Virus record (IMG/VR): IMGVR_UViG_2778261303_000004
Reading direction: 5' to 3' (one strand)
Length of the DNA: 12,853 nucleotides
Source of the DNA: a virus
Taxonomy: Duplodnaviria; Heunggongvirae; Uroviricota; Caudoviricetes
The translations under genes and the position numbers were made by a program. Positions 1 to 5,134 of the stretch are shown here, piece after piece; position 1 is the first letter of the stretch; every line of letters begins with the position of its first letter. The notes below the pieces were generated by a model that saw only the letters and a program-made list of their open reading frames with translations, had not been told where the DNA came from and did no database searches.

Positions 1-158
1 ATTTATCTCTATGTTCAACCATATTTTTTAAATTACGTGTGGTTTTCTTAATTTTATTTAATGAAATAATATTAAATTATTAACAGTTTGATTTATTTTT
101 ATATCAGGAGAAATTTTATATCTGAAACAAAGTCCCATTTTTTTGCAGAGGTGAGGTT

Positions 159-374
159 GTGAGTTCGATAGATAAGATTTCAACTGGTATTTCCTATGGC
201 ACCTCCGTAGGCAGTGCTGGCTACTGGTTTTTACAGTGGCTTGATCAGGTCAGTCCGTCACAGTGGGCGGCAATTGGTGTACTGGGAAGTCTGGCACTGG
301 GCTTTCTGACTTATCTGACGAATCTGTATTTCAAGATTAAAGAAGACAGGCGTAAGGCTGCACGGAGGGAATGA
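159..374 (+). CDS. S: Class II holin, phage 21 S-type pinholin (71 aa)
   Basis: Translation (...[67 protein letters not shown]) matches from memory the 71-aa S21/EssD pinholin: two TMDs, glycine-zipper TMD2, basic C-terminus. Only in-frame start is GTG at 159, preceded by purine-rich GAGGTGAGG. Followed by a lysozyme with a SAR N-terminus. Confidence 0.9.
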
Positions 375-467
375 CTCATCGAACTATTCTCTTGTTCAGA
401 AAATTACCAGTTGATCTGGCTTTATCGGAGATGCTCTTCTTTAATGTACAGAAACAAATTTTTAACT

Positions 468-785
468 TTATCTGAACTTGAGTGATAATTTATTGAAGAG
501 TCGTTTTTTTTGGAGGCAGGCATGACTTTTGTCCCATAAGCAATTACAGGAACTGAATTCTTCATTAATCCATTCGTTTATATTATGTTTCAGTTGTTGA
601 AGTATTAATGGTGTCAATGCAGTTTTTATAATATCCAGCGTTTCTGTCGAGAGACGGCCATATGGTTCAGCGATAATGGATTTCGTTACATTATAATTGT
701 CCTTGAGGAGTATCAGAAATTCTGACTTAACTTTTTCGTTCAGTACAAGCATAAATACTCTGTGTAAGTTGTCTTTATCATTCAT
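468..785 (-). CDS. Hypothetical protein, AT-rich moron-like ORF (105 aa from ATG at 783-785; 107 aa if TTG at 789-791)
   Basis: Uninterrupted 105-107 codon ORF on the minus strand in a visibly AT-rich segment (roughly 30% GC by eye) where stop codons should be frequent, so chance is unlikely. No convincing Shine-Dalgarno before either start. No hydrophobic TM segment; C-terminal Cys/His cluster (SSCNCLWDKSHAC). No homolog recognised. Confidence 0.45.
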   Translation of the reverse strand: MNDKDNLHRVFMLVLNEKVKSEFLILLKDNYNVTKSIIAEPYGRLSTETLDIIKTALTPLILQQLKHNINEWINEEFSSCNCLWDKSHACLQKKRLFNKLSLKFR

Positions 786-913
786 TTTCAAAGCTTAATC
801 TTTGGTCATCCGGCGTGTAGCCCTGAGGTATGTGCATCAGATGTGTTATGAGCCTCTGATGACAGATCTAACATAGCCGGGATTCAGAAGACTATAAATC
901 CTGATAAATATCC

Positions 914-1447
914 ATGAACGCAAAAATCAGATACGGCCTGTCGGCTACTGTACTAGCGCTGATTGGTGCAGGCGCGTCTGCTCCTCAAATACTTAACCAG
1001 TTTCTGGACGAAAAAGAAGGTAACCACACCACTGCATACCGTGATGGTTCCGGCATATGGACCATCTGCCGGGGAGCAACGATGGTGGATGGTAAACCTG
1101 TTATTCAGGGCATGAAACTGACGAAGGAAAAATGTGGCCAGGTTAATGCCATTGAACGTGATAAGGCACTGGCATGGGTGGAACGCAATATTAAAGTACC
1201 ACTGACCGAACCACAAAAAGCGGGTATTGCGTCATTCTGTCCCTATAACATTGGCCCCGGTAAATGTTTTCCGTCAACGTTCTATAAGCGGCTGAATGCC
1301 GGTGATCGTAAGGGCGCATGCGAGGCGATTCGCTGGTGGATAAAAGATGGTGGGCGCGATTGCCGCATACGTTCAAATAACTGCTATGGACAGGTTATTC
1401 GTCGTGACCAGGAAAGCGCATTAGCCTGTTGGGGGATAGATCAGTGA
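914..1447 (+). CDS. R: SAR endolysin, phage 21 R / DLP12 RrrD-type lysozyme (177 aa)
   Basis: N-terminus [24 protein letters not shown] is a Gly/Ala-rich signal-anchor-release domain; [22 protein letters not shown] and the rest match remembered RrrD/R21 lysozyme. Immediately precedes Rz. Confidence 0.92.
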
Positions 1448-1908
1448 GCAGAGTCGCCGCGATTATTTATGCTCTGGTTATCTGCATCATCGTCTGCCTG
1501 TCGTGGGCGGTCAATCATTACCGTGATAACGCCATCACCTACAAAGCCCAGCGCGATAAAAATGCCAGAGAACTGAAGCTGGCGAACTCGACAATTACTG
1601 ATATGCAGGTGCGCCAGCGTGATGTTGCTGCGCTCGATGCAAAATACACAAAGGAGTTAGCCGATGCGAAAGCTGAAAATGATGCTCTGCGTGATGATGT
1701 TGCCGCTGGTCGTCGTCGGTTGCGCATCAAAGCAGTCTGTCAGTCAGTGCGTGAAGCCACCACCGCCTCCGGCGTGGATAATGCAGTCTCCCCCAGACTG
1801 GCAGACGTCGCTGAACGGGATTATTTTACCCTCAGAGAACGAGTGATGGTGATGCAGAAACAACTGGAAGGAGCGCAGGAATATATCCGTACTCAATGTC
1901 TGAAATAA
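1444..1908 (+). CDS. Rz: Rz i-spanin (inner-membrane spanin subunit)
   Basis: GTG start at 1444 overlapping the endolysin stop (GTGA); N-terminal TM helix [19 protein letters not shown] followed by a charged coiled-coil-like periplasmic domain; matches remembered RzpD/Rz. The ORF track's 1429 start is a TTG inside the endolysin gene and less likely. Confidence 0.85.
1664..1846 (+). CDS. Rz1: Rz1 o-spanin lipoprotein, embedded in the +1 frame of Rz
   Basis: 60-aa ORF wholly inside Rz in another frame; signal peptide with lipobox VVGC, then proline-rich PPPPPAW...PPDW, the hallmark of Rz1/RzoD. Confidence 0.85.
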
Positions 1909-2057
1909 GTTCCCGGATACGCTGTATCGACGCTGTGTTTCCGTATTAACAGAAATAGTTGACTGATGTTGTTGACTTCATGTTCGTTGGTACGGAAATA
2001 ATCGAAACGATGCACATCGGATTTTACAGTGTACAAGGTGTGAGGACTTATTTCCCG

Positions 2058-2297
2058 TTATTGTCCATTAGTACGATGGTAAAAGTAACCTGACCGGGTA
2101 TTTAGTTCTTCAGTATTCCGTTGTGCTGTCTTTATTCTCTTCTCTGTTGACAGTCTTCGGCGACAGGCTTCAATGACCCATGCAGAAAAATTTCCTGATC
2201 CTTTTTCTTCAAGAGCAATATGTATCTGCTCGATCATTCGGTTTGGAAAGCGGATGTTACGGGTAGTTGTTCTGCTGGTTTTATTTTTTGATGACAT
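2058..2297 (-). CDS. Putative ribbon-helix-helix (Arc/CopG-like) small DNA-binding protein, 79 aa
   Basis: Minus-strand ORF between Rz and cos (the position bor occupies in lambda). N-terminal basic stretch then RNIRFPNRMIEQIHIALEEKGSGNFSAWVIEACRRRL fits beta-strand / helix A / helix B of an RHH fold. Possibly related to small YlcI/DUF3950-like proteins at this position in DLP12-type prophages (memory only, unverified). Confidence 0.55.
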   Translation of the reverse strand: MSSKNKTSRTTTRNIRFPNRMIEQIHIALEEKGSGNFSAWVIEACRRRLSTEKRIKTAQRNTEELNTRSGYFYHRTNGQ

Positions 2298-2451
2298 GAT
2301 GTTGTCCCGTGTTCAGTGTTGCTGATTTGTATTGTCTGAAGTTGTTTTTACGTTAAGTTGATGCGGATCAATTAATGCGACACCTGCGCCAAAATTGATT
2401 ATTTGCCGTGGTTTCATGGTGTACATAGAAGTTGTGATGGTCTTTATGAAC

Positions 2452-2468
2452 ATGATAATTATTATCAT
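2452..2468. promoter_or_regulatory. 17-bp AT-rich palindrome ATGATAAT-T-ATTATCAT (Fur-box-like GATAAT hexamer pair)
   Basis: Near-perfect inverted repeat read directly from the sequence, about 37 bp upstream of cosN; two inverted GATAAT hexamers as in the Fur consensus GATAATGATAATCATTATC. Function not established. Confidence 0.3.
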
Positions 2469-2504
2469 TTGAATGGGTCCTTTCCGGTGATCCGGCAGGC
2501 TACG

Positions 2505-2516
2505 GGGCGGCGACCT
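2505..2516. other. cos: cosN cohesive-end sequence GGGCGGCGACCT (terminase nicking site)
   Basis: Exact 12-nt lambda cohesive-end sequence, followed by CGCGCGTTTTCACTATTTATGAAAATTTTT, closely matching the remembered left end of lambda; lies directly upstream of Nu1/A terminase genes. Confidence 0.85.
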
Positions 2517-2556
2517 CGCGCGTTTTCACTATTTATGAAAATTTTTCGGGAAAAAG

Positions 2557-2667
2557 CAGATCCGTTCTTCTTCTTTTTAACTGATTGATTATCAGTAGAA
2601 TATTAAAAATATAAAAGGATCTGACAAAGGCTGTTTTTGTCCGAAAACGTCATTTTCAGATCCTTTC
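2557..2667. repeat. cosB: cosB-like terminase binding region: three copies of CAGATCC[G/T]TT[C/T] (R3 2557-2567 direct, R2 2613-2623 inverted, R1 2657-2667 direct)
   Basis: Three 11-bp elements read directly from the sequence in the same direct / inverted / direct layout as lambda cosB R3-I1-R2-R1, between cosN and the Nu1 start. The core differs from the lambda R sites as remembered. Confidence 0.7.
2578..2590 (-). promoter_or_regulatory. IHF consensus site (I1-like) between R3 and R2
   Basis: Reverse complement AATCAATCAGTTA fits IHF consensus WATCAANNNNTTR, inside an AT-rich tract at the position of lambda cosB I1. Confidence 0.5.
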
Positions 2668-2685
2668 TGGTTTCCGGATGAGTGT

Positions 2686-3234
2686 ATGAACGTCAATAAG
2701 AAAAAACTGGCCGATATTTTTGGCGTTGATGTCAGGACCATCACCGCCTGGCAGAGTCAGGGGTTACCACTAGTTTCTGGTGGAGGGAAAGGGACTGAAT
2801 CAGTTTTTGATACAACTGCTGCCATTCAGTGGTATGCGCAGCGCGAAGCTGATATTGAAAACGAAAAACTCCGTAAAGAGGTCGAGGATTTGAGGGCTGC
2901 CAGCGAATCAGACCTTCAGCCCGGCACCATTGATTACGAACGTTACCGACTGACGAAGGCACAGGCAGATGCACAGGAACTGAAAAATGCCCGCGACAGT
3001 GGGCAGGTCATTGATACAGGGTTTTGCCTTTTTGCTCTGGGAAGACTGGCACAGGAGATCTCTGCCATTCTTGACTCCATTCCATTGTCCATGCAGAGAC
3101 AGTTTTCGGCACTGACGCCCGCTATGCTTGATTTCCTGAAAACCGATATAGCAAAGGCGGCAAACCGATGCGCATCAACGGCAGAGAAGTTACCGGAGAT
3201 GCTGGATGAATACCTCAGAGAAGCAGCTAAATAA
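2686..3234 (+). CDS. Nu1: Terminase small subunit (Nu1 / Noh-type), 182 aa
   Basis: [36 protein letters not shown]...[48 protein letters not shown] aligns along its length with remembered lambda Nu1 (winged-HTH N-terminus); lies immediately downstream of cos. Confidence 0.95.
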
Positions 3235-5134
3235 CTTTGCTGTTGTTTGTGGAGTGGCACTTCGTGGGCTTTTACGCCCACTGCCTGTAACCACTGTTGA
3301 ATGGGCCGATCAAAATTATTATTTGCCCCCGGAGTCCTCTTATCTTGCTGGGCGGTGGAAGACGTTGCCATTTCAGGTGGCAATAATGAACTGCATGGGT
3401 AATGACCGGATCCGCACGATTAATCTTATAAAATCAGCTCGAGTCGGTTACACCAAAATGCTGATGGGCGTTATTGGTTACTTTATTGAGCATAAAAACC
3501 GTAACAGTCTTCTGTTTCAGCCTACGGATTCTGCCGCTGAAGATTTTATGAAGTCTCATGTGGAGTCAACATTACGGGATGTTCCCTGTCTGAAAATTCT
3601 TTCCCCCTGGCTGGGACGTAAGCACCGGGATAACACGCTGACATTAAAAAGATTCACTTCCCGTGTGGGTTTCTGGTGCCTGGGTGGTGCTGCCGCCAAA
3701 AACTACCGTGAAAAATCCGTGGATGTGGTCTGCTATGACGAACTTTCCTCGTTCGAGACGGATGTTGAAAAAGAGGGCTCGCCAACCCTGCTTGGCGATA
3801 AACGTATTGAGGGCTCTGTATGGCCAAAATCCATTCGCGGCTCGACGCCTAAAATAAAAGGCTCCTGCCAGATCGAAAAAGCGGCCAACGAGTCGGCGCA
3901 TTTCATGCGTTTTTATGTGCCCTGCCCGCACTGTGGGGAGGAGCAGTATCTGAAATTTGGCGATGAATCCACGCCTTTTGGCCTTAAATGGGAGAAGGAC
4001 AGCCCAGAAAGCGTTTTCTACCTCTGTGAACATCATGGCTGCGTGATCCATCAGTCTGAGCTTGACCAGAGCAACGGGCGGTGGATCTGTGAAAACACGG
4101 GCATGTGGACCCGTGACGGTCTGATGTTTTTCAGCGACCGGGGTGATGAAATTCCGCCGCCGCGCTCCATCACTTTCCATATCTGGACGGCGTACAGTCC
4201 GTTCACCACCTGGGTACAGATTGTCTATGACTGGCTGGATGCACTGAAAGATCCCAACGGCCTGAAAACCTTTGTGAACACCACGCTGGGCGAGACCTGG
4301 GAAGAGGCCGTGGGCGAAAAACTCGAACACCAGGTACTGATGGATAAGGTGGTGCGTTACACGGCGGCAGTGCCTGCCCGGGTGGTTTATCTGACGGCGG
4401 GCATTGACTCGCAGCGAAACCGTTTTGAGATGTATGTCTGGGGATGGGCTCCGGGAGAGGAAGCCTTTCTGGTGGATAAAATCATCATTATGGGGCGTCC
4501 CGATGAGGAAGAGACGCTGTTACGTGTGGATACGGCGATCAACAAAAAATACCGCCATGCAGACGGAACCGAAATGACTATTTCCCGTGTCTGCTGGGAC
4601 ATAGGGGGGATCGATGGCGAAATCGTTTATCAGAGGTCAAAAAAACACGGTGTTTTCCGGGTGCTGCCGGTAAAAGGCGCATCTGTCTATGGCAAGCCGG
4701 TGATCACCATGCCAAAAACCCGCAATCAGCGGGGCGTGTATCTGTGTGAAGTGGGGACGGACACCGCAAAAGAAATTCTCTATGCCCGTATGAAAGCCGA
4801 TCCCACGCCTGCGGATGAAGCCACGTCGTATGCCATCCGTTTTCCTGATGATCCGGAGATTTTTTCGCAGACAGAGGCGCAGCAACTGGTTGCGGAAGAG
4901 CTTGTGGAGAAGTGGGAAAAAGGAAAGATGCGTCTGCTGTGGGATAACAAAAAGCGGCGTAACGAAGCGCTGGACTGCCTGGTGTATGCCTACGCGGCAT
5001 TACGTGTGTCCGTGCAGCGCTGGCAGCTCGATCTGGCTGTACTGGCAAAATCCCGGGAAGAAGAGACGACCCGGCCAACCCTTAAAGAACTGGCAGCGAA
5101 GCTGTCCGGAGGAGTGAATGGTTACAGTCGCTGA
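3206..5134 (+). CDS. A: Terminase large subunit (gpA), 642 aa
   Basis: Collinear with remembered lambda gpA ([61 protein letters not shown]); 29-nt overlap with the Nu1 3' end as in lambda. Confidence 0.97.

Follow-up and report, generated by a model that had tools for sequence, protein, structure and literature searches.

The stretch of DNA analyzed here (IMG/VR record IMGVR_UViG_2778261303_000004; 12,853 nucleotides, referred to as the window) is identical to DNA within the late region of a lambdoid prophage in Escherichia coli RM8082 (NZ_CP043825.1). Between the holin gene (S) and the lysozyme gene (R) of this prophage, an open reading frame (ORF) is located on the opposite strand at positions 468-785. 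Judging from its conservation and predicted fold, this ORF is almost certainly a real protein-coding gene, and comparison with related prophages suggests that it is very probably the orphaned half of a convergent cassette, in which a member of PHROG 1853 (the antisense gene) faces a member of PHROG 1085 (a late-strand partner). The best overall explanation, which we hold with moderate confidence, is a selectively maintained, moron-like accessory gene of lambdoid phages that was orphaned by the loss of its partner and may function as an antagonist in the lysogen phase.

The ORF was intact, as the earlier note on this DNA had described, and encodes 105 amino acids from ATG (or 107 from TTG at 791). 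Homologues with 35-66% identity in E. coli, Shigella, and Salmonella retained its length and frame (104-109 amino acids), and the differences between them were mostly in third codon positions. The ratio of nonsynonymous to synonymous substitutions (dN/dS) was 0.17 between the window and L003 (an O111-type prophage), and 0.27 between Shiga toxin (Stx) 2 phage 86 (L005) and Stx2_12E129 (L006). Together with the confident AlphaFold2 fold described below, the conserved reading frame and these ratios argue for a coding ORF rather than a chance frame. An identical protein was found on 84 contigs, and in the eight contigs with the same allele that were examined, the layout was always holin, 93 nt, ORF, 128 nt, and lysozyme. 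Non-coding AT-rich filler with a chance ORF was considered as an alternative, since AT-rich DNA can leave a frame open by chance and the ORF is unannotated in the RefSeq source genome; however, this is effectively refuted by a frame and length kept down to 35% identity across genera, by the third-position bias, and by the confident fold.

The C-terminal tail of the window ORF (...QKKRLFNKLSLKFR) is common to homologues of 63-66% identity, unlike that of the KY180 type, and the window copy therefore appears to be the ancestral intact form. In KY180 (L002 3323-3709) and clusters P0001 and P0002, a 1-bp deletion beside an A8 run replaces the C-terminal tail and gives an ORF of 120-128 amino acids. 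Since the TAA at 800-802 of the window reads GAA in some alleles, these have an N-terminal extension of eight codons. With regard to annotation, the NCBI Prokaryotic Genome Annotation Pipeline (PGAP) made no call for the ORF in RM8082 (L001 12375-12814, corresponding to 474-913 of the window). In O157:H7 EDL933 (L007 3500-3814), PGAP called 90 amino acids from an internal Met, and the ORF of 104 amino acids with the N-terminus of the family is open.

The deduced protein was assigned to PHROG 1853, a family with no assigned function, by a profile match with an E-value of 8.3e-36 (residues 1-103 against profile positions 57-158 of 159). The statement that it matches nothing did not hold, given this match and hundreds of database entries for "hypothetical proteins". 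The family is small and confined to mobile elements of E. coli, Shigella, and Salmonella: word-indexed and exhaustive hidden Markov model searches yielded 26-40 clusters at 90% identity, with 22 representatives among 1.84 billion sequences. The AlphaFold2 model (10-sequence alignment) had a predicted local distance difference test (pLDDT) score of 91.3, a predicted template modeling (pTM) score of 0.82, and five helices. No transmembrane or hydrophobic segment was found in the protein (isoelectric point (pI), 9.05), and the product is predicted to be a soluble cytoplasmic five-helix protein of approximately 12 kDa, in agreement with the solubility proposed previously. The basic C-terminus was also borne out, with seven Lys/Arg in the last 20 residues and a conserved tail, while net charge is not conserved because the phage 86 homologue has a pI of 6.2 (vs 9.05 here). 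On the other hand, the proposed Cys/His cluster stood only as a composition of the window copy (three Cys and three His), and was not conserved in homologues. Only P41, G43, W72, E76, Q92, K93, and L100 (no Cys or His) were invariant among 12 aligned family members; Cys90 is replaced by Lys, Thr, Arg, or Leu in distant members, and His67 is invariant among the five closest homologues only. A zinc-finger or other zinc-binding Cys/His protein was therefore rejected, as the ligands are not conserved.

No match to the protein of 105 amino acids was obtained in Pfam, NCBIfam, or PADLOC scans (Pfam and PADLOC-DB to E≤1), and no PADLOC-DB family was found at E≤1 for either the ORF or four partner proteins. 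A PDB sequence search with the family profile gave nothing below E=0.25, and a Foldseek search with the AlphaFold2 model found no PDB or BFVD structure below E=0.5. Membership in DUF1327/YdfR (PF07041), which had been raised as a possibility, was rejected: the ORF had no Pfam match at E≤1 and is on the opposite strand, whereas ydfR is on the late-operon strand, and the controls, YdfR of strain E2 and orf5 of phage 86, scored 6.6e-43 and 3.7e-45, respectively.

A late-strand partner gene was located tail to tail with the ORF in L003, phage 86 (orf5/orf6), Stx2_12E129, and L021-23. In E. coli, this partner (189-268 amino acids) lies between S and the ORF, and its 3' end touches or overlaps that of the ORF. 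In Salmonella (L010-14 and L029-31), a gene for 260-277 amino acids faces a gene for 105 or 106 amino acids, upstream of the holin gene and beside three holin families. The partners share a C-terminal domain of ~110-150 amino acids (BLASTP between E. coli and Salmonella, 1e-21 to 1e-26), which belongs to PHROG 1085; such a partner is present in L003, L005, L006, L010-14, L021-23, and L029-31; their N-termini differ, being YdfR-like in phage 86 and coiled-coil-like in L003. Since the Salmonella pair adjoins three different holin types, the two genes appear to travel together, and not with S or R, and since the same partner domain and the pairing are kept from E. coli to Salmonella, the travelling unit appears to be a convergent two-gene cassette.

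The partner was found in successive states of decay: full length, a remnant of 65 amino acids (L026), stop-ridden relics (EDL933), and nothing (the window). In EDL933, the spacer between the holin gene and the ORF (L007 3245-3499) contains stop-ridden remnants of a YdfR-fused PHROG 1085 protein (MNKQYELVVK...; NQ*QDVMK...IAADTENL...; tblastn, E=6e-6). In the corresponding spacer of the window (375-467), tblastn with 11 partner proteins detected no partner remnant (nothing below E ~0.4-0.5), and the homology of the window to L003 begins exactly at 468, the stop codon of the ORF. The simple insertion of one gene, as initially envisaged, was replaced by these results with the surviving half of a convergent cassette, the PHROG 1085 partner of which was deleted here. 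An ORF of 34 codons at 371-475 (plus strand) has an ATG overlapping the holin stop codon (ATGA), a site at which other prophages begin their partner or ydfR genes; it is probably spurious because no similarity to these genes was detected.

The gap between S and R and the lysis genes around it comprise the following features:

159-374, plus strand: class II holin S of the phage 21 type (pinholin type), 71 amino acids with a GTG start; Pfam PF04971, E=3.6e-35; labelled "class II holin family protein" by PGAP in RM8082.

375-467, no strand assigned: spacer of 93 nt between the holin stop codon and the stop codon of the antisense ORF.

468-785, minus strand: antisense ORF of PHROG 1853, 105 amino acids; predicted soluble five-helix protein with a pI of 9.05 and the conserved C-terminal tail QKKRLFNKLSLKFR.

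786-869, minus strand: presumed 5' untranslated leader of the antisense gene, judged from the sequence, with no Shine-Dalgarno sequence.

870-898, minus strand: candidate promoter of the antisense gene; -35 TTTATA (898-893), N17, and -10 TATGTT (875-870), with 8 of 12 consensus positions.

893-913, plus strand: invariant segment TATAAATCCTGATAAATATCC abutting the lysozyme ATG; presumed translation initiation region of R, with no classical Shine-Dalgarno sequence.

914-1447, plus strand: lysozyme R, 177 amino acids; PF00959, E=3e-24; PHROG 7 endolysin, E=1e-61.

1444-1908, plus strand: Rz-type spanin gene with an embedded Rz1 (1664-1846); "lysis protein" in PGAP; the genes called on identical contigs match Pfam Phage_lysis and Rz1.

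The Gly/Ala-rich N-terminal segment of R suggests an endolysin of the signal-anchor-release (SAR) type, and the window appears to carry a pinholin/SAR-endolysin cassette with Rz/Rz1, the SAR part being assigned by this N-terminal sequence. The gap is 539 bp with a GC content of 0.356 (0.336 for the antisense ORF), compared with 0.481 for S, 0.496 for R, 0.514 for Rz, and 0.524 for the whole window. The AT-rich insert of ~540 bp reported between the holin and endolysin genes was accordingly confirmed (35.6% vs 48-51% GC in the flanking genes), and this gap was the lowest-GC stretch of 539 bp in the 12.85-kb window: 0.24% of positions were equally low, all overlapping the gap.

Presence/absence polymorphism at the S-R junction, a point left to comparative genomics by the earlier note, was found across related prophages. 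The junction variants were S and R adjacent (DLP12), YdfR only (Qin), partner only, partner plus antisense gene, antisense gene only, and YdfR plus a different antisense gene; in E. coli K-12, essD and rrrD of DLP12 abut, and essQ, ydfR, and rrrQ of Qin are all on the same strand. DNA related to the ORF was present in 675 of 5,426 complete E. coli genomes (~12%), including EDL933, the layout of which (S, spacer, antisense ORF, and R; true ORF of 104 amino acids) is that of the window, and orf6 of phage 86 is a member of PHROG 1853. Therefore, the arrangement is neither rare nor new as a sequence. Wherever the antisense gene was examined next to lysis genes, it ran against the late operon. A moron-like accessory gene fits these data because the junction is polymorphic and an intact opposite-strand gene lies in compositionally distinct DNA. 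Locus searches of GTDB species representatives and IMG/VR, with the family alignment or distant members as the query, gave no confirmed matches. In L017, a remote member of the family, the gene is downstream of a multi-pass membrane protein of 217 amino acids on the same strand, and not beside lysis genes.

The same slot is occupied after ydfR in strain E2 (L004 2551-2823, minus strand) by an antisense ORF of 90 amino acids that belongs to PHROG 2411. A relationship between this ORF and that of the window was rejected (hhalign probability, 0.1%). Since the E2 ORF is unrelated, yet shares the R-proximal blocks, the slot appears to accept different antisense genes behind a seemingly common promoter region. 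A plus-strand block, AACATAgCCgGG (870-881) or AACATAnCCnGG, which contains the -10 element on the other strand, was present in nine of the nine junctions with an antisense gene (including E2) and in none of the five without one; this positional evidence suggests that 870-898 is the promoter of the antisense gene. Immediately ahead of the ATG of R, 21 nt were unchanged in most junction types, one partner-only type among them (not in Stx2_95 or ST1193), and are probably the translation initiation region of R; this segment, TATAAATCCTGATAAATATCC, overlaps the candidate -35 element on the other strand.

In the mechanism considered here, the antisense gene would normally be the opposite-strand half of a tail-to-tail cassette beside the lysis genes. 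In the window, the late-strand partner (the C-terminal domain of PHROG 1085 with a variable N-terminus) would have been cleanly deleted, leaving the antisense orphan between S and R. The antisense gene would be expressed from its own weak promoter (~870-898) in the lysogen while the late operon is silent, and would be shut off by convergent late transcription after induction; because it is placed on the opposite strand, its expression may be uncoupled from late transcription. The conserved linkage to the partner suggests the role of an antagonist or safeguard, in which the antisense protein would act through protein-protein binding against the late-expressed partner, and the orphan copy would act against the partners of co-resident or incoming lambdoid phages. 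We regard this function as a lysogen-phase antagonist of the partner as possible but tentative; orphan copies may either keep an immunity-like value against related phages or be heading to decay. In a further extension, which we consider improbable, the PHROG 1085/PHROG 1853 pair would be a two-state module, in which a late effector (sometimes fused to YdfR) is checked by the opposite-strand protein made in the lysogen; mutual transcriptional exclusion would serve as the switch, and orphan copies would confer immunity to the effector of related phages. There is a precedent in loci that run antisense to the lytic genes of prophages, have a promoter of their own, and are expressed in the lysogen; these are described as typical accessory loci (PMC7067206).

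The late transcript from pR' would reach R/Rz by ordinary Q-dependent read-through. The earlier note had regarded read-through past a convergent gene as a puzzle. No plus-strand terminator was predicted in the gap (375-913), and the Q-modified RNA polymerase of lambda ignores terminators in late-gene transcription; therefore, no special mechanism is needed, and the puzzle dissolves.

Several observations weigh against a selectively maintained gene with a role in the lysogen. The candidate promoter, TTTATA-N17-TATGTT (898-870), which was found in our own scan, matches 8 of 12 positions, is below the threshold of the tool scan, and ends 84 nt upstream of the ATG. No Shine-Dalgarno sequence was found upstream of the ATG in the window copy or in EDL933. 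Orphan antisense copies are the majority in E. coli, and the remote members of the family (26-29% identity; L015-L017) are in a context resembling integrative and conjugative elements (TraG_N, integrase, and an L31 paralogue) without the partner. Partner-only junctions are common, and are often pseudogenized or disrupted by insertion sequences (Stx2_95, ST1193, and O111); partner DNA was detected in 786 of 5,426 genomes. Since either gene is often alone, an obligate pair is unlikely, and a classical toxin-antitoxin system was considered unlikely for the same reason, both genes being frequently found singly. Truncated or frameshifted alleles are present in several lineages, which suggests that some copies of the family are decaying. 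A literature search (the family, accessions, orf6 of phage 86, and genes between S and R) returned nothing specific and no expression or interaction data for family members.

The orphan copies are open to a different reading, in which the gene is a stand-alone moron for lysogenic conversion or phage exclusion and its adjacency to PHROG 1085 reflects modular linkage only. The protein would then act by itself, perhaps by blocking a step in the development of incoming phages or by modulating the physiology of the host; exclusion, abortive infection, and conversion, the functions put forward in the earlier note, are candidates. The E. coli orphans are not only the majority but intact, with the EDL933 type found across O157:H7 and the window allele on 84 contigs; the partner-only junctions and the homologues in the conjugative-element-like context without a partner point in the same direction, and an antisense, AT-rich, and polymorphic placement is typical of morons (PMC7067206). 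However, the same partner domain is kept tail to tail in E. coli and Salmonella despite differing lysis neighbors, neither PADLOC nor Pfam gave a match, the protein lacks a membrane segment, unlike many exclusion proteins, and the expression signals are weak. We consider this reading somewhat unlikely.

The decayed alleles and weak signals would also be expected of a relic that was left after partner deletion, remained intact by chance or owing to recent history, and is not expressed. The partner is deleted here and pseudogenized in EDL933; the ORF lacks a Shine-Dalgarno sequence and a consensus promoter, whereas the paired-type homologues have GAGGA; close relatives carry the frameshifting 1-bp deletion, with truncations in other lineages, and PGAP did not call the ORF in RM8082. 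Nevertheless, the intact form of 105/113 amino acids is dominant in its own cluster (~143 contigs vs ~15 frameshifted), the ancestral C-terminus has been kept, and purifying selection is apparent between lineages, although this may predate the loss of the partner. Unexpressed relic status is, accordingly, judged to be unlikely, and a maintained accessory gene is preferred.

The earlier note had ascribed to the gene its own expression signals, and the support for this was weak: a sub-threshold candidate promoter, the -10 block of which tracks antisense genes, and a weak hairpin were present, but a consensus promoter and a Shine-Dalgarno sequence were not. A scan for consensus promoters and terminators found no minus-strand promoter upstream of the ORF and no consensus sigma-70 promoter. 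The minus-strand terminator-like hairpin at 420-406, GCCAGATCAACTGGT plus AATTTTCTGA, was weak and within chance expectation. The leader hairpin CATCAGA-N13-TCTGATG was no better than shuffled controls (fold z-score, -0.27), and RNA folding of the flanking intergenic stretches was likewise no better than shuffles. Homologues of the phage 86 and Salmonella types have a GAGGA Shine-Dalgarno sequence. A hairpin, CGCCAGTG-loop-CACTGGCG, is conserved among paired-type copies (L005 about 3420-3450, L006, L010 about 3900-3935, and L012), with a T-run behind it in E. coli. Oriented like the antisense gene, this hairpin precedes the ATG by ~70 nt and falls between the candidate -10 element and the ORF; from its sequence and position, it is possibly a leader terminator or attenuator. 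It is absent from the window.

The functional product may alternatively be the antisense transcript itself, running from the R-proximal promoter toward S and interfering or pairing with leaky late-operon RNA in the lysogen and thereby guarding against the accidental expression of the holin or partner. The gene invariably runs against the late operon, it abuts or overlaps the partner gene at its 3' end, the unrelated PHROG 1853 and PHROG 2411 genes share the slot behind the same conserved -10 block, and there is a precedent in the prophage antisense RNA STnc6030, which mediates exclusion (PMC7067206). These points are opposed by the amino acid constraint (dN/dS of 0.17-0.27), conserved length, and confident fold, as well as by the lack of any Rfam match (window 1-3000) or structure better than shuffles and by the terminator-like hairpin ahead of S; a functional antisense RNA is thus very improbable.

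Other parts of the late region showed further accessory DNA. A gene of the YlcI/YnfO family (DUF3950, E=1e-18) at 2058-2297 on the minus strand is a second opposite-strand gene of the late region, just past Rz/Rz1; the stretch around it (1909-2685) has a GC content of 40%, and the window also carries terminase and head genes. The bor gene of lambda sits where this gene sits. At the other end, positions 1-158 of the window have a GC content of just 22%. Directly upstream of the window in RM8082 (L001 10632-11773), an ADP-ribosyltransferase toxin gene and an ORF of 110-124 amino acids lie between Q and the holin gene. Of the eight contigs with the same ORF allele, seven have this toxin cargo upstream of the holin gene (loci considered, L001 and L034-L040); the toxin was Enterotoxin_a/Scabin-like (263 amino acids), or Pertussis_S1 (244 amino acids) in one contig. 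The slot between Q and the holin gene is the position of stx in Stx phages.

The present finding is ordinary in kind: a moron-like accessory gene that is already in well-studied genomes as a "hypothetical protein". The AT-rich "insert" proves to be a real gene, the family of which is catalogued but unstudied, and RefSeq misannotates it or leaves it unannotated (EDL933 and RM8082, respectively). The new point is the tail-to-tail pairing with a late-operon gene, conserved across E. coli and Salmonella, together with the partner decay series, and this conserved convergent pairing is the one lead meriting experiment. If the pair proves to be a lysis safeguard or an inter-phage immunity module, this would have implications for how stable prophages with Shiga toxin or ADP-ribosyltransferase toxin genes are and for how they are induced; a two-state module would be a previously unrecognized type of system, serving competition between prophages or as a lysis safeguard.

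Among known systems, toxin-antitoxin and two-gene defense modules are likewise built of two genes that stay linked on mobile elements, and orphan halves are frequent in them as well. Toxin-antitoxin modules are co-transcribed, whereas the genes here are convergent, either is often alone, and no PADLOC or Pfam match was obtained. The bor gene of lambda and STMMW_20121 of ST64B are likewise small opposite-strand genes at the lysis or late region with a distinct composition and presence/absence polymorphism. bor is transcribed from its own promoter in the lysogen; it encodes a lipoprotein, while the window protein is (predicted) soluble and cytoplasmic, and the two are likened by placement and composition alone. 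STMMW_20121 is reported to be transcribed from its own promoter in the lysogen (PMC7067206). YdfR/DUF1327 of Qin occupies the same S-R junction, and a YdfR-like domain forms the N-terminus of the phage 86 partner; however, YdfR has no sequence relation to the window ORF, and its gene reads with the late operon and lies close against S and R. Binding to RNA and to the N-terminal domain of RNase E has been reported for YdfR, a result that concerns YdfR only (PMC13232886). The PHROG 2411 ORF of E2 (WP_089550612.1) shares the slot upstream of R, the -10 block, and the R-proximal sequence, and its protein is unrelated. The closest likeness is to other members of PHROG 1853, namely, orf6 of phage 86 (BAF34038.1), WP_001063217.1 of E. 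coli, and WP_000138558.1 of EDL933 (48-66% identity and the same length). The late-strand partner is retained in phage 86, Stx2_12E129, and L003, survives only as relics in EDL933, and is gone from the window, while these relatives and the window ORF all occupy the same antisense position beside a lysozyme gene for 177 amino acids in lambdoid/Stx prophages.

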